Origin: a virus | Taxonomy: Duplodnaviria; Heunggongvirae; Uroviricota; Caudoviricetes | Direction: 5' to 3' (one strand) | IMG/VR virus record: IMGVR_UViG_2671180884_000016 | Location: 1-11,914 of that record | DNA length: 11,914 nucleotides | Shown: one piece after another, positions 1-11,914 of the stretch | Layout: each line of letters starts with the position of its first letter | Position numbering within the stretch: the first letter of the stretch is position 1 | The notes under the pieces: generated by a model | What the model saw: only the letters and a program-made list of their open reading frames with translations | Databases searched by the model: none | Told to the model about the DNA's origin: nothing | Position numbers and translations under genes: made by a program

Positions 1-270
1 AGAGATAAAGCCCTGCCGGTGCATCACTTTCCAGATGGCGCGAATTTTGGCGGTCACCGTACCCGGTTTTAAGGCCCGGTTAACCGGTTTCTGACGCACT
101 TTAAAACCGCGTTTTTTGAAAACATCCAGCACGCGGGATAACTCACCGGGTGACATATCCCGGCAGCTGGTTTTGCCGGTGGCTGCCAGTAGTACGAATG
201 TGTAGGTCTCATCATCCAGGGCAAGCTCGCGCTTTGCCACATGAATAGCGGATATCAGTTTCCCTCTCAT
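1..270 (-). CDS. gemA: GemA-like (Mu gp16 / DUF1018-type) protein, N-terminal 90 aa only; C-terminus lies beyond window start
   Basis: Reverse-complement translation of 1-270 gives MRGKLISAIHVAKRELALDDETYTFVLLAATGKTSCRDMSPGELSRVLDVFKKRGFKVRQKPVN..., with the I-x-x-IH-x-AK-x-x-L-x-LDD-x-TY motif recalled for Mu GemA-family proteins. ATG at 268-270 overlaps the upstream gene's TGA (ATGA). Confidence 0.6.
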   Translation of the reverse strand, partial: MRGKLISAIHVAKRELALDDETYTFVLLAATGKTSCRDMSPGELSRVLDVFKKRGFKVRQKPVNRALKPGTVTAKIRAIWKVMHRQGFIS

Positions 271-563
271 GCTGTATCAACACTCCTGCTGATATGATAG
301 ATATTACTTTCCCGATCGAGCTGAACCCGATACTCCGGAGGAATCACAAAAATATTAAAACCATCATCAGTTTTTATTCTTGAGTAGTATTCCCCCTTAT
401 GATATCTGGCAAGTGCATTAATCAGAGAAGTCGCCGCCAGCCCAATCAGGTATTTTTTATGAAAAATACTGATAACTTTCCGGCACAGCCATCGTGTAAT
501 GACGAATGCACCGAAAAACGATGTGATATATAAACACCAGAACAACTGCGAACTACTGTCCAT
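267..563 (-). CDS. hypothetical protein, 98 aa, N-terminal transmembrane helix
   Basis: ORF with strong SD (AAGGAG, 7 nt before ATG at 563). Hydrophobic segment LFWCLYITSFFGAFVITRWL. Stop overlaps the gemA-like start. Confidence 0.55.
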   Translation of the reverse strand: MDSSSQLFWCLYITSFFGAFVITRWLCRKVISIFHKKYLIGLAATSLINALARYHKGEYYSRIKTDDGFNIFVIPPEYRVQLDRESNIYHISRSVDTA

Positions 564-750
564 TATCTTTCTCCTTATTCAGTCTTCTGCGACATTCGGC
601 ACAGTCATCAGGGCTTTCAAATGTATCCGGCTCGCGATTATGAGCCAGATATAACCACCGCCTACATATACTGATATTATCGCCAGTTTTAAAAAAATGA
701 TGCTTCTTAGCCATCAGAGGGCGCGCCCATCCAGCGGGTAGACTATTCAT
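553..750 (-). CDS. hypothetical small protein, 65 aa, Cys-containing (C-x19-C-x2-C), possible zinc-binding
   Basis: ORF with SD GGAGGA 8 nt upstream of ATG at 750; overlaps neighbours by 8 and 11 nt, suggesting translational coupling. Confidence 0.45.
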   Translation of the reverse strand: MNSLPAGWARPLMAKKHHFFKTGDNISICRRWLYLAHNREPDTFESPDDCAECRRRLNKEKDNGQ

Positions 751-1117
751 TTGCTTTATCCTCCATACTGGACAAAATCATCTGTATTAATGTCGGGCGT
801 GGAGATATACGCATTTCATTAAGCGTCTGAAGGGCAGCAACGGCTGCCTGTTTATCGGTGCCTTTGGCAATTTCCGCAAGAGAATGCACAATCCATAACG
901 GACTTAACGCCACGACTGAATCCAGAATCATGTCATCCATAATAATTTCTGACACATCCCGCTTATCACATTCCTTATCCATAAAAGAAACGATTTTTTC
1001 CACATCTTCCGGTTTCATGCCTCCGGCGATAAGAAATTTGCGATACTCATAAGACGATCTTAATTCAATACTCATATTCATCTCCTGTAACTCTGACAAG
1101 GACGTGATTTTTCTCAT
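743..1117 (-). CDS. hypothetical protein, 124 aa
   Basis: ORF in the co-oriented early operon; ATG at 1115-1117 overlaps the stop of the upstream gene (ATGA). Confidence 0.5.
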   Translation of the reverse strand: MRKITSLSELQEMNMSIELRSSYEYRKFLIAGGMKPEDVEKIVSFMDKECDKRDVSEIIMDDMILDSVVALSPLWIVHSLAEIAKGTDKQAAVAALQTLNEMRISPRPTLIQMILSSMEDKANE

Positions 1118-1299
1118 TTATGTTTTCCAGTAATACGGATATATATGTCGATAAGAAGATTCATAATAAACAGGAAGAGCGACATCCTGATAAAGAACCA
1201 AATATCTGGCATCATGGACAGGTTTCCTGTAATCGCAAATATAAAACCAACCCCCAACACCGGAACGAAAATTGCGAAAAATACAAGTCTCTTTATCAT
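1114..1299 (-). CDS. small hydrophobic membrane protein, 61 aa, two predicted TM helices
   Basis: Sequence MIKRLVFFAIFVPVLGVGFIFAITG...WFFIRMSLFLFIMNLLIDIYI is dominated by two hydrophobic stretches; ATGA overlap with upstream gene at 1296-1299. Confidence 0.5.
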   Translation of the reverse strand: MIKRLVFFAIFVPVLGVGFIFAITGNLSMMPDIWFFIRMSLFLFIMNLLIDIYIRITGKHK

Positions 1300-1847
1300 G
1301 GCGTTAACTCCCGTAATACAGCGTCCTCGGCAGTCCGGCGATGGTGATAAATAAAATTCACCGTACTCTCGGATAATTCAAATTTCTCGCCTATTTCCCG
1401 GAAGGTAAGACGTCGTGGTGATTCAGCATCCCGTAATTCACGAATAAGATGAACATCATCGTCAGGTATACGGGTGAAGGGCAGCAATTCTCCGTATTTT
1501 TTCATGCTTACGCCAATATATCGCGCCCGATTGTGGACAGAATCCCGGTCTCGCCCCAGATATTCTCCTATTTGCTTACCGGTCATCGTTCTGGCATTTT
1601 TTCGGATAAATTTATCTTCATCATGTTTAAATCTTGGACGTTTGCATTTGAGCAACTCCGGGTAAGTACCGCGTAATAAAACAATCCGGTTATGTACACC
1701 CCAGAAACTTCTTTTTACCCTGACAGCAATATCCTTAACCGGGGTGGATGGATAAAGCGCAATCAGCAGCGCATCTTCTTCAGGTGTCCACGCACGGACA
1801 TGAGCAGGTGCCTGACCTTTTCGCCCCATGGGTTGTAAAATCATCAT
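1296..1847 (-). CDS. putative DNA-binding protein, 183 aa, with three helix-turn-helix-like segments
   Basis: SD AGGGGG 7 nt upstream of ATG at 1847. Segments WTPEEDALLIALY (Myb/SANT-like), TGKQIGEYLGRDRDSVHNRARYIG and LTFREIGEKFELSESTVNFIYHH (sigma-70 region 4 / LuxR-like) read as HTH motifs by eye. Confidence 0.55.
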   Translation of the reverse strand: MMILQPMGRKGQAPAHVRAWTPEEDALLIALYPSTPVKDIAVRVKRSFWGVHNRIVLLRGTYPELLKCKRPRFKHDEDKFIRKNARTMTGKQIGEYLGRDRDSVHNRARYIGVSMKKYGELLPFTRIPDDDVHLIRELRDAESPRRLTFREIGEKFELSESTVNFIYHHRRTAEDAVLRELTP

Positions 1848-1850
1848 ACA

Positions 1851-2366
1851 TCACCCCCTGACTCGCTTTTCAGCAGCATAAAACTCATCAGACAGAATTT
1901 CGGTCATTTTCTGATTTGCGGGTTTTACGCCGCACTCAAGGTAAATCACATCGTCAACGCAGAACCACTTCACAGGGCCAAACATGATTGCCGAGAAATC
2001 AATACCCAGCCAGAACAACAGTGCATCGGTTCTGGCATACGTGACGGGCGAATATTCACGCCACAGACTGTTAAGTTCGTCAGAGGCAACGCGCAGGGCT
2101 TTGGGAATACGTGATGTGCGCGGTGTGCAGCTCCAGCCATTCGACGCAGTCGGTTTTCGCCATAAGTCGCGATGAAAAGGATATTTGTCATCCATAAAGC
2201 GCAGCCCTTTAAAACAAAAGCCACTGATACCGGATACAAATACCGACCGGCACGCAACATTCAGCACGGCCTCAAGGCGTTTTGCCTCATCCTTAACTTT
2301 CTGGCAGTCCTGCTGATATTTTTGCCACGCGGCCAGCGCGGAAGGGTTTGATGTTTTAAAGAACAT
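1851..2366 (-). CDS. hypothetical protein, 171 aa
   Basis: ORF with SD GGAGGTG upstream of ATG at 2364-2366; TAATG stop/start overlap with upstream gene. Confidence 0.55.
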   Translation of the reverse strand: MFFKTSNPSALAAWQKYQQDCQKVKDEAKRLEAVLNVACRSVFVSGISGFCFKGLRFMDDKYPFHRDLWRKPTASNGWSCTPRTSRIPKALRVASDELNSLWREYSPVTYARTDALLFWLGIDFSAIMFGPVKWFCVDDVIYLECGVKPANQKMTEILSDEFYAAEKRVRG

Positions 2367-2899
2367 TACGCCACCTCCGCAGATATCCCGGCAGGCGCGG
2401 CCGTCCGGTCAACAATCAGGTAACGCAGAACGCGCGAGGTGATATTCCAGCCGCTTAAACCGCAGATAATGACACCCAGGCGTATGTCGATATACGCCAT
2501 CACAAACTGGGGCACGCCTTCTTTCATGGCCTGCTCATCAACTTCAGCCACCACATAAACGGTTTCACAGGTCAGAACGCCCTGAGCAAATTCCCACGCC
2601 ATTGACGGAATATCATGCCCCTCAATCCACGGCAGGGATTTTCTGAAGCTGCACCACTGAACATCATCAGCCGCACCTTCCTGGCTGCATTTGCGACGAA
2701 CCGGCTGCACCGGGCGGGGACGCGGAATATCATAAAAACCGTTACATTCCGTCAGCACCCCGGCATCGACCGCATCACGCAGAAAATAAACCATCGAGGA
2801 TGGCGGCATATTCATTTTTTCAGCCAGAATGCCGCAGGTCAGACGCCCGTAAATACTCAGCCAGTTTTTAACCCCTTCAAGCACTTTTGCATCAATCAT
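2366..2899 (-). CDS. hypothetical protein, 177 aa (possible N-terminal winged-helix-like region)
   Basis: ORF with SD GGAGGA 8 nt upstream of ATG at 2899; no family recognised from sequence alone. Confidence 0.55.
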   Translation of the reverse strand: MIDAKVLEGVKNWLSIYGRLTCGILAEKMNMPPSSMVYFLRDAVDAGVLTECNGFYDIPRPRPVQPVRRKCSQEGAADDVQWCSFRKSLPWIEGHDIPSMAWEFAQGVLTCETVYVVAEVDEQAMKEGVPQFVMAYIDIRLGVIICGLSGWNITSRVLRYLIVDRTAAPAGISAEVA

Positions 2900-2902
2900 G
2901 AA

Positions 2903-3445
2903 TTATTCCTCCGTCAGCGCCACATATTCAGAATGTTTAATCTCCTGGCATTCTTCAGGAATACCCCCTTTTATTTCCCTGCCATAAGCGCCTACTTTAA
3001 ACACCACGCACAGGGCATCACGGGAGAGCGACGGGGTCCACCAGGAGTCCATGTTAAACATGGAGGGGATTCTCATTACCCCCAGCTTTTCACAGAGCCA
3101 GACAAGGAAATCAGGACGCTTTCTTAACTCGCGTTCAGCGGCTTCAATCATTGCGGCAATCGCCGGTCCTTCAGGGCATGACTCATCAGGTCTGGCAATA
3201 AAGCACGGTCCGTCCCCGATAAAAGCCACATCATCGCGCTTACGCCAGCCCGCAGGCAGAGCACCAGAAAAATAAAACTCACTGATTACGTCCATGGCAA
3301 ACGGCTTTAAGCGCAATCCGGCAGCGCCTGTATTTTTCAGTAATGCCCGAAGAATACTGTTGCGTAGCGGTAAAACAGTCTGTTGATATTTGGTGAAATA
3401 TTTATTTGTCTGCACACGGTCTAATTTGAAATAAAAATATGCCAT
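2903..3445 (-). CDS. hypothetical protein, 180 aa
   Basis: ORF with SD AAGGA upstream of ATG at 3445; first gene downstream of gam in the operon. Confidence 0.55.
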   Translation of the reverse strand: MAYFYFKLDRVQTNKYFTKYQQTVLPLRNSILRALLKNTGAAGLRLKPFAMDVISEFYFSGALPAGWRKRDDVAFIGDGPCFIARPDESCPEGPAIAAMIEAAERELRKRPDFLVWLCEKLGVMRIPSMFNMDSWWTPSLSRDALCVVFKVGAYGREIKGGIPEECQEIKHSEYVALTEE

Positions 3446-3542
3446 ATATCCTGTTCCTTATTTTCAGTTTACAGGCGCAGGCAGTCCCCTGACGCGAGCG
3501 CCATACTTAAAACGATGTGATATTTAAAGATTTAATGCGGTG

Positions 3543-4073
3543 TTATTTATTCAGTCCGGCGTCCTGTTCAAAAGGCTCGACATAAAAACTTTCAGCGCCT
3601 TTATTCACCTTAATACCGGCAATGCCTTTCACTGCATCCGGCTCCGCCAGGACCGCTTCCTTGTTCACTTCCTCTTTCGTGCGGATGAATCGCTCAAGCC
3701 CCATACGGCGCAGCATTTCAATCACACCTTCCACATCACGGCTGACGCTGCATGATGGATTTCCCAGCCGCCATGACACTGTTCCGGTGGTCAGATTGGC
3801 TGTTTTGGTTTTGCCGCCGTTCGTCAGCTCATCGCGGTTGGTTTTGCACCAGTCCTGAATCCCCTTAAAAAGCACTTTGATTTCTTTTTTAAGGTTTTCA
3901 ATCTGCGGCGTATAACGGGCGGTGATTTCTGCCACTTCATCATTCATCGCCGTTTCCAGCCGCAGCGCCTCTCGCTGAATATCGCCCAGGGTACGGATAT
4001 CGCGGCTGACTTCTTCGCGGGTCTGCGGTGCAGCCTCGGCTGCGGCCTTTAATTTTGTAACACGTTTAGCCAT
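3543..4073 (-). CDS. gam: host-nuclease inhibitor protein Gam (Mu Gam / Ku-like DNA end-binding protein)
   Basis: 176 aa. Resembles the Mu Gam sequence as recalled: N-terminal MAK...LETAMNDEVAEI, central DELTNGGKTKTANLTTGTVSWR, C-terminal RFIRTKEEVNKEAVLAEPDAVKGIAGIKV...EPFEQ. Position in the early operon is appropriate. Confidence 0.8.
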   Translation of the reverse strand: MAKRVTKLKAAAEAAPQTREEVSRDIRTLGDIQREALRLETAMNDEVAEITARYTPQIENLKKEIKVLFKGIQDWCKTNRDELTNGGKTKTANLTTGTVSWRLGNPSCSVSRDVEGVIEMLRRMGLERFIRTKEEVNKEAVLAEPDAVKGIAGIKVNKGAESFYVEPFEQDAGLNK

Positions 4074-4084
4074 TTTGTTTTTCC

Positions 4085-4378
4085 TTATTGCAGTGTGCCT
4101 GATGCTTTATGCACGCGGTGGCGTTTAATGATGGCATCCGCCCCAAAAGCCTGTACAGATGCCTGAAATTCCGCTGAGAGAAACTGAATAATTTCAGGAC
4201 TGTGATACTGGAGAATACTTGCATAAACGTCACAGAGTGACGTCGGCCTGTTATTCGTATCACGTTCTGTTTTTACATCCACACCAATCTTTTCATGCAC
4301 TTCAACACAGTCATTGCCTGCCGGTTTTTCGTCATGCGAAACATGCTTAAATTCAAAAATAACGCGTACTTTGCTCAT
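4085..4378 (-). CDS. hypothetical small protein, about 97 aa; paralogue of the 4383-4655 gene (ORF track extends to 4405, internal start preferred)
   Basis: ATG at 4376-4378 is preceded by SD AGGGG and lies just after the upstream stop. N-terminus MSKVRVIFEFKHV matches MSKVVRIIFEYKEHV of the neighbour. Confidence 0.5.
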   Translation of the reverse strand: MSKVRVIFEFKHVSHDEKPAGNDCVEVHEKIGVDVKTERDTNNRPTSLCDVYASILQYHSPEIIQFLSAEFQASVQAFGADAIIKRHRVHKASGTLQ

Positions 4379-4382
4379 GGAA

Positions 4383-4655
4383 TTACCCCTGCTGATTAAA
4401 TTCATTACCTTTAATAACCCCGGAACGCATGCTCATATCTTTCATGAGCGCACTGGCTTTCATTGCCACAAGTTCAGCAAAGTCTCTGCTTTCCGCGAGC
4501 ATAACCACCCCAAAAATCATGGCGGGTCCATCACCTTTCTGCTTTATCCCGGTTGAACGTATGTCCAGACTTACCCCCATGCGCACTGTTCCATCAGCGT
4601 TTTTATGGATAACGTGCTCCTTGTATTCGAAAATAATGCGTACGACTTTACTCAT
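4383..4655 (-). CDS. hypothetical small protein, 90 aa; paralogue of the 4085-4378 gene
   Basis: ORF with SD-like GAGGACCAGAGG before ATG at 4655; ATGA overlap with upstream gene. Nucleotide similarity around both starts (aaaataaYgcgtac...ctcat). Confidence 0.5.
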   Translation of the reverse strand: MSKVVRIIFEYKEHVIHKNADGTVRMGVSLDIRSTGIKQKGDGPAMIFGVVMLAESRDFAELVAMKASALMKDMSMRSGVIKGNEFNQQG

Positions 4656-5201: not shown

Positions 5202-5423
5202 TTAGCTGACTTGTTTCGCACCAACAGAACGGCATATTCCGCTGTAAACGTCTGTCGCACCTTCGCGATCAAGTCCGGCAGATATCACCATTCGTGTGCG
5301 GTCATTAAATTCAAAAAGTAAATCGCCACATTCTTTATTTTCGGCCAGTGAAATCACCTTCACGTTATCGAAATTAACCAGGTAAAAGCGTCCGTAAATA
5401 TCAGGAATATTAAATACCGCCAT
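5202..5423 (-). CDS. hypothetical small protein, about 73 aa, immediately downstream of B (position of kil in Mu)
   Basis: ATG at 5421-5423 preceded by SD AGGTG; the ORF track's start at 5429 is a GTG two codons upstream. Follows B stop (TGA 5426-5428) after 2 nt. Confidence 0.45.
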   Translation of the reverse strand: MAVFNIPDIYGRFYLVNFDNVKVISLAENKECGDLLFEFNDRTRMVISAGLDREGATDVYSGICRSVGAKQVS

Positions 5424-5425
5424 AA

Positions 5426-6358
5426 TCACACCTGTGAGAGTAATTCAGGGTTGGTATAAACCTCTTTAAAGGCCGCATTAATATGTTTTTCTGTCAGCGC
5501 CGCGCCTTCACCGCTGGCGGTGAGCCACGCCTGGTTAAGCGTATGTGTCAGAACGCGTAACGCTCCCGGCTTTTCAGCGATAGCCTGCATGACGGCCAGC
5601 TCGGCCTCACCACTGATCCCCCACGCCCTGGCAATGGCCAGCACATCCGCCTTTTTGGCCTTGCGAAGTTGTTTTGTACGGGCAAGACGGCTGAACAGGC
5701 GCGATAAATCATCAAAGGCGCGGCGTCCACCTTTAAACAATCCGCGCGGGTTACCAATAAGCACCATCCCGATCCCCGTGGCGTCCTGAATTGCCCGGAG
5801 TTGCTCCAGACCGTCAATACCAAGATGATCCGCCTCATCCACAATCACCAGTCCACGCGTTCCCATCAGGCGACGGCGGATGGCGCGGGATAATGCCCCT
5901 TTGTTCGCGCGGGTGTAATCAATCCCCAGCGCATCGGCCAGCTCCAGCAGACACTCCGTGACGCTGGAGTGCGCGGGTGACAGGGTGATCATCCAGGTGT
6001 TTGGTTGCTCCTGGCAGTAATTACGGGCAGTGGCCGTTTTACCCACACCCGGTACGCCCACAATAACGTTAATACAGCCCATCAGACGAACCGCCTGAAA
6101 CAGTGCGCGCAGCTCCTGGACTGTCTGCGTTTCCACAAACTGCGGCGGTTCCGGCAGTGCGCTTTGTTTATTCCAGTTCTCATACCAGGAACGCAGGGAA
6201 GCAGCCACAGCAGCGTTATCGCCTTTATATTTTCCCTTACGGAAAGCCGATAATGTGCCGTCGGAAATTCCCGCCTCTCTGGCGATGGCATACTGCGTCA
6301 GTACGCCGCCATCAATAAGTTCATCAATGGTCTTGATTACATCGTTAATATCAGTCAT
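5426..6358 (-). CDS. B: Mu B-like DNA transposition protein (AAA+ ATPase target-DNA activator)
   Basis: 310 aa. N-terminal HTH-like region, Walker A GVPGVGKT, Walker B-like LVIVDEADHL; directly downstream of the transposase as in Mu. SD GAGAGG upstream. Confidence 0.85.
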   Translation of the reverse strand: MTDINDVIKTIDELIDGGVLTQYAIAREAGISDGTLSAFRKGKYKGDNAAVAASLRSWYENWNKQSALPEPPQFVETQTVQELRALFQAVRLMGCINVIVGVPGVGKTATARNYCQEQPNTWMITLSPAHSSVTECLLELADALGIDYTRANKGALSRAIRRRLMGTRGLVIVDEADHLGIDGLEQLRAIQDATGIGMVLIGNPRGLFKGGRRAFDDLSRLFSRLARTKQLRKAKKADVLAIARAWGISGEAELAVMQAIAEKPGALRVLTHTLNQAWLTASGEGAALTEKHINAAFKEVYTNPELLSQV

Positions 6359-6396: not shown

Positions 6397-6430
6397 AACC
6401 TGAGTCGCCGCTCGGGTTATTTTTTTATTT
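6397..6430 (+). terminator. hairpin plus T-tract in the A-B intergenic spacer, best formed on the plus (antisense) strand
   Basis: aacctgag / ctcgggtt stem (8 bp, one G-U) with 6-nt loop, followed by atttttttattt on the plus strand. Confidence 0.3.
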
Positions 6431-8538
6431 CAGGCCAGCGGGTCATTTTCTTTTAATTTCGCTTCCAGCAACTGCAATCCCCGCTGGAAATTACGCTCGT
6501 ATTCTTCATCAGGTTCATCGTCAGCGACCGGTTGCTGAACGGTCACCGTATTACCCACAGGGCGGTATATGTTTTCCAGCCAGGGCTCCTGCGGCTTGTG
6601 CTCCAGCACGTTGACAACCTCATCCTCGGCATCACGGATTTTTTCCTCTGCGCGTTTACGCATGCCTTTAAGGCGTTGCTGCTGTTTGTAGTATTCCGCG
6701 CTAACCGGGAAGGCTTCGCGTTTATTACCGTCCCATACCGCCTCGCAAATCACGCTGCCATCCAGGCGACGTACGGTAATTCGTTCGGCATCATGAATGT
6801 CATAGCTGATAAGCACCTTACGACCATGCTCGTCACGCAGCTCGGGCGCGTAGTAAATATTATTCAGCCAGCGTATTTCACAGCGTCTTACAGGGCGTTC
6901 CACCATCGGCCGGAACATATCCCGCAGCTCAACATCGGACAGCCATTCAATTTCCGTGTCCTCTTCCGCCAGGCGTTTTTTTCTGAACTCCGCCGGGCTG
7001 TAATGCTTGCCGTTCGGCTTCACCGGTAATTCATCGTGCGGCCGGTTGTTGTACCACTCAACACCGTCACGAATGGCATCAATCAGTTCAGACCAGGACG
7101 GTAAATCACGCATCGCTGACTGCTGCCGGGCGTTCAGCCGTTTGCCCTGTTGCAGGGCAGTAAATGCCGAGCGTAAATCGCGGTTGGTTTTGCGTAACGT
7201 CTCGCGATCTGCACCTTTCCCGAAATAGGTGCGGTATTTACGGGCTATGCGCATCGGTAATGTGCGGTTAAGCCGTTCGATAATGCCTCGTCCCTGCGGA
7301 TTACCGGCAATCCCGGTCGGGTGATTAATCCCCAGTCGCGGCAGTATCCCCACAACCTCCTTATCCAGGATGTCGGCGGTTTCCCCGGAGCCGTTATCCG
7401 AGTAATACAGAAACGGTTTGCCGTGATGGCGAATGCCGTGCTGTATGGCACCGGCTACGGCGAAAACATTTTCAGCCAGGTCAAGGCTCCAGCCCACCAC
7501 AAAGCGCGTGCCACCGTCGATAACAAAGGTCACTTCCGGTGCAAATGGCCGACCGTGAACCGGGTGTGCGCATTTCAGCTTCATGCCGTGACCGTCACCA
7601 ATCCAGACATAATTCACCGGCATTTTTGACCAGTCGCGGCGCGTGAATCCCTCAAGCTGGCGGTATTCACTGCCGGTCACCCGGCCTTTTTGTTTCACCA
7701 CTTCCGGCAGTTTCTTCATTGCGCGGCGAATGGTGTCATAAGACGGCATGATATCGAGCATATAAGGCTCATCAGCGTGCCGGTGCTGCCATTCAGCGAC
7801 AAAATCCTCGTAAGCCTCGGTCATTGGTCGGCCGTTTGACTGGCGATACTGCGCCAGAAATTCGGGCAGCCAGTTAATATCTTCGGCTTTTATTTCCTGG
7901 CGCTTACCCGGTGCCAGTAAAAGCAGGCGTTCAGCGGCGTTCTGCGCCTTGTTAAAGGCCGCAATCCAGCGTTTCAGCGTTATTTCACTCAACGCACGGC
8001 TGTTTCCCTTTTTGGCGTTCGCCGTCTCAACCATTGCCACAATGCGCTCGTCCAGTTGCGAACGTGCCAGGTTGTCAACGATAAACCGGATAGCTTTCGC
8101 GCAGCTGAAACCGGGTTGTTGCGCGACTTTCATCACTTCGCTGACGATCGCGATTCGTGCATCAGCCACCTGGCGCTGGTTTTCAGTCAGGGCATTGAGG
8201 CGTTCGACCATCAGTTGTGGTGATCCGCGATATGCCTCCACCGCATCAACCACGTCAGATGAGCGTCTGGCCTTTGTCACCACCGGAGCCGGTGATTCAT
8301 CGGCTTTTTGCGTCATCAGTTGCAGGGCATAGCGTTCGCGTACTGCCTGCTGAACAGTTAAAGGCAAAGCTCCTATTTCACACTCTAAAACTTTCCCTTT
8401 TACCCCTGGTTTTAGCCGCGTTTTCCACGCTTCCCTCTTTGCTTTTTTGTGCAGACCTGCCAAAGAACTAGGTAGGTCACTGAATGAAATCAATTCAGTC
8501 ATTGCAACCCACATATTTCCTCCGCGCACGTCGTTCAT
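6430..8538 (-). CDS. A: Mu A-like DDE transposase (N-terminal repressor-like DNA-binding domain, central rve-type catalytic core, C-terminal domain)
   Basis: 702 aa; size and position (after ner, before B) match MuA. N-terminal ...SDLPSSLAGLHKKAKREAWKTR... parallels the adjacent repressor. Start may be the internal ATG at 8514 (MWVAMTEL); either start overlaps the ner 3' end. Confidence 0.9.
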   Translation of the reverse strand: MNDVRGGNMWVAMTELISFSDLPSSLAGLHKKAKREAWKTRLKPGVKGKVLECEIGALPLTVQQAVRERYALQLMTQKADESPAPVVTKARRSSDVVDAVEAYRGSPQLMVERLNALTENQRQVADARIAIVSEVMKVAQQPGFSCAKAIRFIVDNLARSQLDERIVAMVETANAKKGNSRALSEITLKRWIAAFNKAQNAAERLLLLAPGKRQEIKAEDINWLPEFLAQYRQSNGRPMTEAYEDFVAEWQHRHADEPYMLDIMPSYDTIRRAMKKLPEVVKQKGRVTGSEYRQLEGFTRRDWSKMPVNYVWIGDGHGMKLKCAHPVHGRPFAPEVTFVIDGGTRFVVGWSLDLAENVFAVAGAIQHGIRHHGKPFLYYSDNGSGETADILDKEVVGILPRLGINHPTGIAGNPQGRGIIERLNRTLPMRIARKYRTYFGKGADRETLRKTNRDLRSAFTALQQGKRLNARQQSAMRDLPSWSELIDAIRDGVEWYNNRPHDELPVKPNGKHYSPAEFRKKRLAEEDTEIEWLSDVELRDMFRPMVERPVRRCEIRWLNNIYYAPELRDEHGRKVLISYDIHDAERITVRRLDGSVICEAVWDGNKREAFPVSAEYYKQQQRLKGMRKRAEEKIRDAEDEVVNVLEHKPQEPWLENIYRPVGNTVTVQQPVADDEPDEEYERNFQRGLQLLEAKLKENDPLA

Positions 8539-9599: not shown

Positions 9600-9775
9600 A
9601 GTATGTGCAGTATCAAATTTGTTGCCGATACCTTAATTTTATACCGGATTTTATTTAATCAGTATCAAAACTAAACAACCTCCAGAATCATCGATCACCT
9701 GTTTTATTTCAGTATCTTACAGGTGATTTCACCTCCTTTCACTAAAACCCTTGTCGGTATCAAATGATTTACCTG
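9600..9775. repeat. prophage left-end region with four GTATC(A/T)-containing repeats at about 50-bp spacing (candidate transposase end-binding sites, attL-like)
   Basis: cagtatcaaatttgttgccgatacc (about 9608), cagtatcaaaactaaacaacc (about 9660), cagtatcttacaggtgatttcacc (about 9710), cggtatcaaatgatttacc (about 9755); AT-rich, non-coding, between the c stop and the junction. Confidence 0.5.
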
Positions 9776-10022
9776 GTTACACTCTGCACTGCCGGGCGAT
9801 ATCCTGCTGTGCTGCTTCGGCGCATCGGTGGCTAATCATGCCGCCATTTACTGCGGCAACGGTGAACTGCTTCACCATCTGCCTGAACAACTGAGTAAAC
9901 GGGAGAGGTATTCCGAAAAATGGCAACGACGAACGCATTCTGTCTGGCGTCACCGCCACTGGCACGCATCTGCCTTCACGGGGATTTACAACGATTTGGC
10001 CGCCGCTTCAGCCTGTATGTGA
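9768..10022 (+). pseudogene. K: 5'-truncated remnant of lambdoid tail assembly protein K (C-terminal about 84 codons only)
   Basis: In-frame translation ...LHSALPGDILLCCFGASVANHAAIYCGNGELLHHLPEQLSKRERYSEKWQRRTHSVWRHRHWHASAFTGIYNDLAAAS matches the lambda K C-terminus as recalled. An in-frame stop at 9765-9767 lies immediately upstream, with no ATG and no N-terminal K coding sequence. Confidence 0.7.
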
Positions 10023-10600
10023 ACACGGCGGCGGAAGCCATCCGCGCCCTGTCGCTGCAGGTGCCGGGATTCCGCCGTCAGATGAACGAAGGCTGGTACC
10101 AGATACGCATTGCCGGTGAGGATACGGCACCGGAGGCGGTGTATGCCCGCCTTCACGAACCACTGGGTGAGGGAACGGTTATCCATATTGTGCCGCGACT
10201 GGCCGGAGCCGGAAAGGGCGGACTACAGATTGTGCTGGGGGCAGCTGCCATTGTGGGGTCTTTCTTCACGGCCGGAGCATCAATGGCGTTATGGGGTTCA
10301 GCCCTGGCAGCCGGTGGTTTTTCTGCCACCACGATGCTGTTTTCACTGGGTGCCAGCATGATACTGGGCGGTGTGGCCCAGATGCTGGCCCCGAAGGCAA
10401 AAACACCGGATTACCGCGCAACGGATAACGGCAGACAGAACACGTATTTTTCCTCACTGGACAACATGATTGCCCAGGGCAACCCGATGCCGGTGCCCTA
10501 CGGTGAAATGCTGGTTGGTTCACGACGTATCTCTCAGGACATCAGCACCCGTGATGAAGGCGGAGACGGAAAGGTGGTGGTTATTGGTCGACAGGGATAA
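9920..10600 (+). CDS. I: lambdoid tail assembly protein I
   Basis: 226 aa, MATTNAFCLASPPLARICLHGDLQRFGRR...GKQNTYFSSLDNM..., closely parallels lambda gpI; overlaps the K 3' end as in lambda-like tail modules. Confidence 0.9.
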   Translation: MATTNAFCLASPPLARICLHGDLQRFGRRFSLYVNTAAEAIRALSLQVPGFRRQMNEGWYQIRIAGEDTAPEAVYARLHEPLGEGTVIHIVPRLAGAGKGGLQIVLGAAAIVGSFFTAGASMALWGSALAAGGFSATTMLFSLGASMILGGVAQMLAPKAKTPDYRATDNGRQNTYFSSLDNMIAQGNPMPVPYGEMLVGSRRISQDISTRDEGGDGKVVVIGRQG

Positions 10601-10603
10601 AAC

Positions 10604-10639
10604 ATAAAAAAATCCCGCAGTGATCGCGGAGCTGCGGGG
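10604..10639 (-). terminator. rho-independent terminator-like hairpin, minus-strand orientation, just downstream of the I stop
   Basis: Stem tcccgcag / ctgcggga (8 bp) with 11-nt loop; on the minus strand the stem is followed by TTTTTTTAT (plus-strand A-run 10606-10612). Confidence 0.4.
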
Positions 10640-10812
10640 ACAGACAAATGAAGATTAATGTTAAGGAGTTGTTTTTGTTACTCGGGCAAAAAAACACTAA
10701 CGCAGCGAAATTATAAGCGCCACAGTCAGTGTGTGAAAATGTGAAGATATTCAGAATTTTTATGCCATTACCGGTTTTAACCAACAGGATTATCGGTGGG
10801 CATGAAAGAAAA

Positions 10813-10845
10813 CCCCGGTATCTGCTGATACCGGGGTTTCTGTTT
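10813..10845. terminator. bidirectional rho-independent terminator-like hairpin in the I-J spacer
   Basis: Perfect 10-bp stem ccccggtatc / gataccgggg with 4-nt loop, flanked by gaaagaaaa upstream and tttctgttt downstream (T-rich on both strands). Confidence 0.5.
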
Positions 10846-10942
10846 AGCATGGCAGAAATGTGTTTCATGCTTTTCGGGCGAAGGATATCCGACTTCTGTA
10901 CGGAATGGCAAGTGGCGGTTAATTTATTCAGGGGAAGGCTGT

Positions 10943-11914
10943 ATGGGAAAAGGTGGCGGTAAGGCACACACGCCTCGTGAGGCGAAGGATAATCTCAAAT
11001 CCACGCAGATGATGAGCGTGATTGATGCGATTGGTGAGGGACCCATTGAAGGTCCGGTGAAAGGCCTGCAGAGTATTCTGGTGAACAAAACCCCGCTGAC
11101 GGACACGGACGGTAATCCCGTGATACACGGTGTGACCGCGGTCTGGCGCGCCGGGGAGCAGGAGCAGACACCACCGGAAGGCTTTGAGTCCTCCGGAGCT
11201 GAAACTGTACTGGGTGTGGAAGTGACGAAGGCAAAACCGGTGACACGCACCATTACGTCAGCGAACATTGACCGCCTGCGGGTGACCTTCGGGGTGCAGT
11301 CACTGGTGGAGACCACGTCAAAGGGTGACCGTAATCCGTCCTCTGTCCGTCTGCTGATTCAGTTACAGCGTAACGGTAACTGGGTGACAGAAAAGGATGT
11401 CACCATTAACGGCAAGACCACCTCACAGTTCCTGGCCTCGGTGATTCTGGATAATCTGCCTCCCCGCCCCTTTAACATCCGGATGGTCAGGGAGACGGCG
11501 GACAGCACCACGGACCAGCTGCAGAACAGAACGCTGTGGTCGTCATACACCGAAATCATCGATGTGAAACAGTGCTACCCGAACACGGCCATTGTGGGGA
11601 TGCAGGTGGATGCGGAGCAGTTTGGTGGTCAGCAGATGACGGTGAACTACCATATCCGCGGTCGCATCATCCAGGTGCCGTCAAACTATGACCCGGAAAA
11701 ACGCACGTACAGTGGTATCTGGGACGGCAGTCTGAAACCGGCATACAGCAACAACCCGGCCTGGTGCCTGTGGGACATGCTGACTCACCCGCGCTACGGG
11801 ATGGGAAAACGCCTGGGGGCGGCGGATGTGGACAAGTGGGCGCTGTATGCCATCGGGCAGTACTGCGACCAGACGGTCCCGGATGGATTCGGGGGCACAG
11901 AGCCGCGGATGACC
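10943..11914 (+). CDS. J: lambdoid host specificity / central tail fibre protein J, N-terminal 324 aa; continues beyond window end
   Basis: Translation MGKGGGKAHTPREAKDNLKSTQMMSVIDAIGEGPIEGPVKGLQSILVNKTPL...PPRPFNIRM...LWSSYTEIIDVKQCYPNTAIVG...SNNPAWCLWDMLTHPRYGMGKRLGAADVDKWALY... is near-collinear with lambda gpJ; SD GGGGAAGG upstream; open to the window edge. Confidence 0.95.
   Translation, partial: MGKGGGKAHTPREAKDNLKSTQMMSVIDAIGEGPIEGPVKGLQSILVNKTPLTDTDGNPVIHGVTAVWRAGEQEQTPPEGFESSGAETVLGVEVTKAKPVTRTITSANIDRLRVTFGVQSLVETTSKGDRNPSSVRLLIQLQRNGNWVTEKDVTINGKTTSQFLASVILDNLPPRPFNIRMVRETADSTTDQLQNRTLWSSYTEIIDVKQCYPNTAIVGMQVDAEQFGGQQMTVNYHIRGRIIQVPSNYDPEKRTYSGIWDGSLKPAYSNNPAWCLWDMLTHPRYGMGKRLGAADVDKWALYAIGQYCDQTVPDGFGGTEPRMT

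Follow-up and report, generated by a model that had tools for sequence, protein, structure and literature searches.

A T5 D5-like protein with three predicted helix-turn-helix modules, encoded in the early operon of Mu-like prophages, is a candidate accessory DNA-binding regulator

The question raised by this locus is what a protein built from three helix-turn-helix (HTH) units in series does in the early operon of a Mu-like prophage. The window that we analyzed, i.e. the whole stretch of 11,914 nucleotides from IMG/VR record IMGVR_UViG_2671180884_000016, corresponds by sequence similarity to the left end and early region of such a prophage. Identity amounts to 95.7-96.4% with the ‘inserted Bacteriophage Mu-like phage’ annotated within two Stx-converting phage records, and reaches 99.4% with prophages of sequenced E. 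coli chromosomes. An earlier description made from the letters of the DNA (the sequence-only reading) had proposed that the product is a phage transcription factor, or else an anti-sigma factor or sigma mimic acting on host transcription. Our analysis points, with a probability of roughly 0.55 for the overall model, to an accessory early double-stranded DNA-binding protein or regulator for which site-specific binding is favoured over general DNA binding.

The open reading frame (ORF) is present as first described, with the same translation, and it lies on the minus strand, which corrects the earlier description (Table 1). Its ribosome-binding site is strong: the AGGGGG motif is found just upstream of the TGA stop codon of the gp12-like gene (1851-1853), which is itself 3 nt before the ATG at 1847. 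At the other end of the gene, the overlap of its stop codon with the start of the next ORF indicates translational coupling to that ORF. Given the close stop/start spacing on both sides, the gene is thus tightly embedded in a same-strand operon and translationally coupled to its neighbours. When positions 1-4200 were scanned for consensus sites, no promoter-like site emerged on the strand of the gene, and the only terminator-like site on the minus strand is located at 2804-2790, inside the gp11-like ORF. A promoter belonging to the gene itself was therefore rejected, as the promoter/terminator scan of this region is empty near the gene on its strand. The ORF is a real gene, since dN/dS between its natural alleles is 0.13-0.30, i.e. 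it is under purifying selection, and since it is intact in every E. coli genome that carries it. The carriers are 232 of 5426 complete genomes (~4%), and the match covers at least 80% of the gene in all 232. The protein is identical to the RefSeq ‘DNA-binding protein’ WP_000973021.1 (locus L002).

Table 1. Positions in the window of the three-HTH gene, its reading signals, the encoded modules and the neighbouring early genes.
Feature	Coordinates	Strand	Basis or remark
GemA (gp16), N-terminal part, cut by the window edge	1..270	minus	Pfam GemA, E 3e-17
Next ORF, 61-aa hydrophobic protein	1114-1299	minus	Start overlapped by the stop of the three-HTH gene
Three-HTH coding sequence, 183 aa, ATG start	1296..1847	minus	Stop codon 1296-1298; ORF list and translation, identity to WP_000973021.1, dN/dS, PHROG 323
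ATGA stop/start overlap of the 183-aa ORF and the next ORF	1296..1299	minus	ORF coordinates and sequence
Linker (residues 113-128) and module 3 (residues 129-183)	1299..1511	minus	Predicted helices 129-140, 149-156, 160-169 and 173-181
Repeat 2 (residues 70-112), Myb/SANT-like HTH	1512..1640	minus	Predicted helices 75-84, 90-97 and 101-110
Repeat 1 (residues 20-62), Myb/SANT-like three-helix HTH	1662..1790	minus	Predicted helices 22-31, 37-44 and 48-59 (third helix)
N-terminal arm (residues 1-19)	1791..1847	minus	Consensus M.L.PMG.PG..P.H.R.; conserved (mean 0.59), predicted unstructured; alignments A1 and A2
Mu gp12 (formerly E13) homologue	1851..2366	minus	BLASTP against Mu gp12: 54% identity, E 4e-68
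Shine-Dalgarno-like AGGGGG	1854..1859	minus	6 nt 5′ of the ATG at 1847; read from the sequence
Gp11_C protein	2366-2899	minus	
Unnamed ORF	2903-3445	minus	
Gam	3543-4073	minus	
B	5426-6358	minus	
Transposase A	6430-8538	minus	

AlphaFold2, run with a 28-sequence alignment, gives an all-helical model of the protein with a mean pLDDT of 84.7 and a pTM of 0.50. The model contains three three-helix bundles at residues 22-59, 75-110 and 129-169, the last of which is completed by a fourth helix at residues 173-181, and a poorly ordered stretch at residues 1-20 (pLDDT 51-63). All three segments that had been quoted as HTH-like from the sequence fall on HTH units of this model. Among the outcomes of the HMM and structure searches that had been recommended as a check, the HTH folds of the model and an assignment to PHROG 323 (see below) speak for the proposal, while every Pfam HTH match of the window protein falls below its curated cut-off and a Foldseek search of the whole model against the PDB returned nothing at E≤0.001. 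The latter is put down to the chain being composed of independent modules on flexible linkers, like beads on a string, in keeping with the pTM of 0.50.

Comparison of the modules with one another by hhalign shows that repeats 1 and 2 are true internal repeats (98.3%, E 1.6e-14). Module 3 is at best distantly related to module 2 (58.7%). The first two modules resemble the R2R3/SANT domains of c-Myb, WER, Cdc5 and CoREST, namely tandem three-helix repeats of ~50 residues that begin with W-T-x-E-E-D, and the spacing from W20 to F70 is of that size. The family profile matches c-Myb R2R3 colinearly over residues 18-106 (E 2.9e-6), and further matches B-Myb, Trichomonas Myb3 and Myb21, and the CRISPR-repeat-binding protein 2lvs. 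As a single sequence, however, the window protein scores only 14.7 bits against the Pfam Myb_DNA-binding gathering threshold of 24.4, while 19 of 28 homologues match this model at E<0.01 (best 6.3e-9). Thus, the Myb/SANT-like character that had been claimed for the first segment stands for the family and fails for the single sequence, and the label ‘Myb-like’ holds only at the level of the family profile. Three tryptophans are the signature of each Myb repeat; here W20 alone is conserved, the second and third tryptophan positions are aliphatic, and repeat 2 begins with F70 (alignments A1 and A2). The third, non-Myb HTH is a further difference from the Myb proteins.

The top Foldseek match in the PDB is 2lvs (probability 0.82, E 0.17, not significant), which is likewise a single chain of tandem HTH modules and is matched by the profile over residues 29-114 (E 2.6e-4); it differs in being archaeal and in having an unrelated genomic context. 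The best fold match is the DNA-binding domain (DBD) of GcrA from Caulobacter (PDB 5yiu). GcrA proteins combine this domain with a C-terminal sigma-70-interacting domain, which the three-HTH protein lacks; it also has no Pfam GcrA match, and it carries three modules rather than one.

Among characterised proteins, D5 of phage T5 is the nearest relative. The window protein matches PHROG 323, ‘transcriptional regulator, D5-like’, with its residues 2-182 on profile positions 80-256 of 319 (E 6.3e-59), and T5 D5 (translated from AY543070) matches the same profile at E 1.2e-71. When the family was aligned with D5 using hhalign (97%, E 1.1e-10, 162 columns), residues 71-252 of D5 paired with residues 17-183 of the target, so that the three HTH modules line up without any change of order; at the level of the two single sequences, BLASTP finds 22% identity (162 aa, E 7e-4). 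As judged by these profile comparisons, the protein is a member of the T5 D5-like family. Both genes are early genes that lie among replication genes. On the other hand, D5 has ~70 additional N-terminal residues forming another HTH-like unit of its own (profile positions 3-80), and neither the conserved N-terminal arm nor the KxGD linker of the three-HTH protein is present in it. According to the T5 record, D5 binds DNA, is required for DNA replication and late transcription, and takes part in shut-off.

The family extends far beyond these two proteins. A profile search of 1.84 billion representative proteins returned 14184 matches at E≤0.001, among which the full three-HTH architecture is common to proteins of ~180 aa. 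Many long proteins hold several tandem stretches of the repeat 1-2 type (up to 11 matched), and one of these is fused to a helicase. Phage proteomes in the BFVD show this architecture widely, and there it also serves as the DNA-targeting part of endonucleases.

The setting of the gene is that of a Mu early operon, as the sequence-only reading had supposed. On the minus strand the order of genes is: ner-like, A, B, small ORFs, Gam, an unnamed ORF, Gp11_C, the gp12 homologue, the three-HTH gene, four small ORFs and GemA. The three-HTH gene thus shares its strand with A, B, gam, gp11 and gp12. In the annotation of a prophage that is 99.4% identical to the window, Mor follows GemA just outside the window, so that the gene does lie upstream of gemA with mor beyond it. 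Mor and C of Mu are also small phage-encoded DNA-binding regulators from the same region of the genome, but they have no sequence relationship to the three-HTH protein, which gives no Mor match, and Mor is present separately, downstream of GemA.

In phage Mu itself, an unrelated 60-aa ORF follows gp12 at the place of the three-HTH gene, and tblastn of the three-HTH protein against phage Mu gives no match. It follows that the gene does not belong to the Mu core but is an accessory of this lineage of prophages; as Mu lacks it, the basic Mu life cycle can proceed without it. It should be noted that the downstream 61-aa ORF is not Mu gp13 (BLASTP gave no alignment); the three-HTH gene is thus no clean insertion between gp12 and gp13.

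Close homologues (33 in all) are confined to E. coli, Salmonella and Citrobacter. We classed 64 IMG/VR loci, found with alignment A1, by their neighbouring genes. About 44 of them are Mu-like, and in these the gene always comes after the gp11-like and gp12-like genes and before a variable set of small ORFs and GemA; Mu-like prophages of Salmonella have the same layout. The other ~20 are P2-like and place the gene between a Dam-type methyltransferase gene and replication gene A, often overlapping the start of A. The common denominator of the Mu-like and P2-like loci is an early operon beside replication functions, as is the case for D5 in T5. The sequence-only reading had missed the occurrence of this mobile cassette in P2-like prophages, as well as the internal repeat and the kinship with T5 D5.

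In order to locate the constrained parts of the protein, conservation was scored across 29 diverse full-length homologues. The third helices, which correspond to the recognition helices of HTH proteins, are the least conserved helices (0.46, 0.37 and 0.41 in modules 1, 2 and 3, respectively); the first helices score 0.56-0.76. Conservation is highest in helices 1 and 2 of module 3 (0.76 and 0.74, as opposed to 0.41 for its helix 3) and in the linker between repeat 2 and module 3, hereafter the R2-R3 linker (0.60). The invariant residues are W20, K117, G119 and D129. The protein has a pI of 9.9, and the net charge is +3 for repeat 1, +6 for repeat 2 and -3 for module 3.

The same pattern is seen between natural alleles. 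Two E. coli alleles, from prophages with almost identical backbones, differ at 23 of 40 positions in the third-helix regions and at 29 of 143 positions elsewhere (Fisher p 1.5e-5). dN/dS is 0.33-0.74 in the third-helix regions versus ~0.20 in the rest of the gene; since it stays below 1, the rise may reflect relaxed constraint. In one allele (L034), third helices of the two types occur together, suggesting that alleles recombine. An allele of the L014 type is 71% identical to the one in the window.

We infer that the three-HTH protein almost certainly binds DNA, and the following mechanism is proposed. The protein would be made early, because its gene is co-transcribed and translationally coupled within a Mu-type early operon. 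The chain consists of a short conserved N-terminal arm, two basic Myb/SANT-type repeats resembling the GcrA DBD, and a four-helix HTH. The two basic repeats might act as an R2R3-like reading pair, and one molecule could then place its three third helices in successive major grooves of an extended asymmetric site. Such an arrangement is known from c-Myb R2R3 and other tandem-HTH proteins, which set their recognition helices into successive major grooves. The exact DNA site would differ between alleles, because the third helices are the fastest-evolving parts; thus, specificity probably varies from allele to allele. The invariant R2-R3 linker and helices 1 and 2 of module 3 would serve as a conserved contact, either with a protein partner or with the DNA backbone. 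The conservation of these two helices and the acidic charge of the module fit a contact with protein at least as well as the reading of DNA.

As for its role, the protein may act early in development and modulate transcription and/or replication of the phage (or the host). We infer this outcome from the analogy with T5 D5 and from the fact that Mu-like and P2-like prophages consistently carry the gene among their early replication genes; the sequence specificity and the target are likewise proposals. The proposal that the gene is an additional regulator agrees in this respect with its PHROG description and with its place in the early operon; the regulatory role itself is the step that goes beyond these data. 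The repeat search found no obvious operator-like repeat array in the prophage part of the window, and this is counted against the proposed mechanism, as are the sub-threshold Pfam HTH scores and the lack of a significant Foldseek match in the PDB.

The analogy with D5 may also be followed in another direction. To our knowledge, T5 D5 has no documented sequence specificity, and the analogy therefore points equally to non-specific binding, which is likewise counted against the site-specific model. The three-HTH protein could then be a general, cooperative coating or architectural protein of double-stranded DNA with little sequence preference, which changes the state of the template for replication and for the transcription that follows, or else brings about the shut-off of host or early expression. 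Membership of the same PHROG, colinearity with D5 and the replication, late transcription and shut-off roles given to D5 in the T5 record are all in keeping with such a function, and so are the basic pI and the strong ribosome-binding site. Variable third helices would also be expected if no specific base contacts had to be kept. However, identity to D5 is only 22%, D5 has its additional N-terminal module, and D5 is essential for replication and late transcription in T5 according to its record, whereas the three-HTH protein is dispensable in Mu-type phages. Furthermore, Myb R2R3-type pairs are classically sequence-specific. We regard general coating as unlikely on balance and as the best placed of the alternatives. 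Between a site-specific regulator and a D5-like general binder, it is as a preference that we adopt the former.

A different target for the protein, namely RNA polymerase or its sigma factor, had been suggested by the comparison of its third segment with sigma-70 region 4 and LuxR. Module 3 might in this case be a mimic or competitor of sigma region 4, or the protein might tether the sigma-70 holoenzyme to (possibly methylated) DNA in the manner of GcrA. Module 3 does have the four-helix shape of sigma-70 region 4 and of the LuxR (GerE) HTH, with the HTH formed by helices 2 and 3, and there are sub-threshold Sigma70_r4 and r4_2 matches in the target. The Sigma70_r4 match amounts to 19.4 bits against a cut-off of 24.1 and spans 23 residues of the HTH core. 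However, the HTH_AsnC-type (22.4 bits against a cut-off of 27), HTH_11 and MarR_2 models all score on the same 20-30 residues, and Sigma70_r4 does no better there than they do. Among the homologues, 19-20 of 28 match each of the Myb, Sigma70_r4 and AsnC-type HTH models at E<0.01, the figure for Sigma70_r4 being 20 of 28. When a profile of module 3 alone was searched against the PDB, it retrieved generic HTH proteins only, with a designed CAP repeat at 8e-5; designed and Xre-type regulators came ahead of sigma-E region 4, which was reached at E 0.14-0.9. There is no match to sigma region 2 in the window protein (TIGR02937 scores 14 bits against a cut-off of 42.9) and none to Pfam GerE. In addition, the protein has no Pfam AsnC_trans_reg match and no C-terminal alpha/beta RAM domain, the model being all-helical.

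A specific sigma-70 region 4, LuxR or AsnC identity of module 3 was therefore rejected, since its matches are those of HTH domains in general, and the term ‘sigma-70 region 4 / LuxR-like’ is a description of shape, i.e. a four-helix HTH, rather than a family assignment. The NCBI name ‘AsnC family protein’ is a misnomer, because the protein lacks the RAM ligand-binding domain and is modelled as all-helical; what it shares with AsnC/Lrp proteins is the HTH core only. The anti-sigma or sigma-mimic function raised by the sequence-only reading accordingly finds no support in the Sigma70_r4 scores, the region 2 search or the rank of sigma-E region 4. What remains in favour of a polymerase target is that the most conserved surface comprises helices 1 and 2 of the acidic module 3 and not its third helix, that the best fold match is the GcrA DBD, and that a Dam methylase gene is found upstream in all ~20 P2-like loci. 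The P2-like loci are related to one another, however, and the Dam linkage is absent both from the Mu-like loci and from the P2-like Citrobacter phage Shae_phiSM, which carries a 35%-identical copy without a Dam neighbour; it is thus a lead only. As the GcrA C-terminal domain and a Pfam GcrA match are also lacking, targeting of RNA polymerase or sigma is improbable.

Little probability likewise attaches to a role in phage-host or inter-phage conflict, in which the protein might bind incoming or competitor DNA and so cause exclusion, might bind or decoy host DNA-based sensors, or might be what such sensors detect. This idea draws on a 2026 preprint, in which T5 D5 is an HTH DNA binder that is toxic when expressed and that triggers a type IX retron through its HTH, with escape mutations mapping to D5 (PMC13405049). 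The fast-evolving third helices would fit an arms race, and the gene is an accessory early gene that moves horizontally. However, dN/dS stays below 1, there is no linked effector gene, and the neighbours are ordinary Mu early genes. A PADLOC scan assigned no defence family to the three-HTH protein or to five neighbours, its only match for the target being to a weak homing-endonuclease model.

That match (E 0.0083) bears on the origin of the protein, which could be a free-standing remnant or domesticated copy of the DNA-targeting domain of a homing endonuclease, maintained as a selfish cassette or as a derived repressor. Repeats 1 and 2 also match the HNH-endonuclease PHROG 1891 (E 0.0046 for the target and 6.6e-6 for the Shae_phiSM homologue), the fold matches in the BFVD include endonucleases, and the distribution is patchy, with different positions in unrelated phage backbones. 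Moreover, the tblastn matches in mycobacteriophages lie within genes for HNH endonucleases, which in turn interrupt genes for methylases. (An association with DNA methylases drawn from these matches was rejected, as the repeats belong to the HNH endonuclease/methylase ORF that interrupts the methylase gene.) Against such an origin, there is no nuclease domain, the arm and the three HTH modules account for all 183 residues, the purifying selection on the gene and the intactness of all its copies point to an independent function, and the position of the gene is fixed within each phage type. An endonuclease-derived cassette is thus quite unlikely.

Very unlikely as well is a reader of replication or methylation state, whose GcrA-like repeats would read phage DNA in a given state, e.g. 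Dam-methylated or newly replicated, whose invariant module-3 surface would recruit the transcription or replication machinery, thereby linking early DNA synthesis to the stage of expression that follows in phages of the Mu-like and P2-like types, and whose fast third helices would record an arms race with host sensors of DNA mimics, e.g. type IX retrons.

Two features are open to experiment, namely the allele-specific third helices and the invariant linker with the module-3 surface. It was already known that the family exists (PHROG 323) and that the protein is annotated as DNA-binding in RefSeq; a literature search found nothing on Myb-like proteins of prophages. New here are the explicit link to D5, the anatomy of the repeats, the dismissal of the AsnC and sigma labels, the Mu-like and P2-like contexts and the pattern of conservation. 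Database names for these proteins vary and are partly wrong (‘AsnC family protein’, ‘SANT/Myb protein’, ‘DNA-binding protein’ and ‘hypothetical’), and a defensible label is ‘T5 D5-like three-HTH DNA-binding protein’. In E. coli, Salmonella and Citrobacter, Mu-like as well as P2-like prophages carry the same cassette in their early operons. Since T5 D5 is reported to trigger a retron (PMC13405049), the D5-like proteins of prophages are candidates for interplay with type IX retron defence. Finally, many of the carrier E. coli genomes listed are Shiga-toxin or O157:H7 strains; should the protein regulate host genes or the development of the prophage, it could influence how prophages are induced in Shiga-toxin strains.

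The repeat of the 183-aa protein, WTxEEDxxL...EIAxxLGRSxxSVxxRAxxLGL, also occurs in long proteins of 300-1100 aa, which form a large family and have 3-11 stretches of it in tandem. Those noted among the proteins matching the family profile are P0035, P0036, P0039, P0044 and P0078; in P0036, a ResIII/Helicase_C helicase is joined to the tandem repeats. The repeat is not covered by any one Pfam model, so its matches are spread across Myb, Sigma70_r4_2, HTH_AsnC-type and GcrA models. This scatter probably explains why database names are inconsistent, alternating between 'AsnC family' and 'SANT/Myb'.

By fold, the repeats of the 183-aa protein match GcrA best, and GcrA is a reader of methylated DNA. 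In all ~20 P2-like loci with a homologue (L057-L079), a Dam-type (MethyltransfD12) methylase is encoded 0-1.5 kb upstream and replication gene A lies downstream. The end of the methylase gene directly abuts the homologue in several of these loci. The pairing with the methylase could reflect either lineage synteny or a functional link.

Coordinates of the features discussed in the text
Feature	Sequence	Position	Remark
P2-like example (methylase neighbour)	L067	4087-4971	
P2-like example (methylase neighbour)	L007	4752-5687	
Homologue allele	L034	5001-5549	
Homologue allele	window	1296-1847	
Homologue allele	L014	6001-6552	71% identical to window allele
IS5-like ISKpn26	L014	4498-5478	one E. coli strain
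Lambdoid tail gene, 3' part (C40 peptidase/K-like ORF)	window	9828-10022	outside Mu-like prophage
Tail assembly protein I	window	9920-10600	outside Mu-like prophage; Pfam Lambda_tail_I
J, start only	window	within 9740-11914	outside Mu-like prophage, after tail assembly protein I
20-nt direct repeat, copy in ORF	window	515-534	
20-nt direct repeat, copy after gam	window	3509-3528	
36-nt inverted repeat, left-end arm	window	9697-9732	prophage left-end region
36-nt inverted repeat, inner arm	window	5348-5383	just downstream of gene B
Small early ORF	window	4085-4378	minus strand
Small early ORF	window	4383-4655	minus strand

When the three alleles listed were compared, they had a mosaic look. In the L034 protein, the third helix of repeat 2 is near that of the divergent (71%) allele, while those of repeat 1 and module 3 are of the window type. 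Such a mixture of third-helix types suggests module-by-module recombination between alleles. In L014, the ISKpn26 element sits between gemA and the small ORF downstream of the homologue, which shows that disruption is tolerated in this stretch of variable small ORFs.

In the window, the end of the Mu-like prophage is at ~9781, where the sequence reads ...GGTTACA; the prophage termini are of the TG...CA form. Lambdoid tail genes lie beyond this end; therefore, insertion of the transposable prophage has disrupted another prophage in its tail region, in agreement with the 'inserted Mu-like phage' annotation of the Stx-phage records LC727881 and LC727895.

Within the prophage, a 20-nt direct repeat, AAAACGATGTGATAT[A/T]TAAA, matches at 19/20 positions between its two copies, one in the 97-bp gap directly after the gam stop codon and the other in the 5' part of a 98-aa ORF (267-563). 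By a rough estimate, such a match is unlikely to arise by chance in 9.8 kb, and the repeat may represent a regulatory site or else a relic of a module junction. The arms of a 36-nt inverted repeat are 78% complementary, and the left-end arm contains the local palindrome CACCTGT-N17-ACAGGTG; this may be a binding element for the transposase or a host factor. Finally, the N-termini of two adjacent small early ORFs are nearly identical, MSKV(V)R(V/I)IFE(F/Y)K (12/17 identical), with little else alike; the two ORFs may have arisen by tandem duplication and then diverged, or may share a leader.
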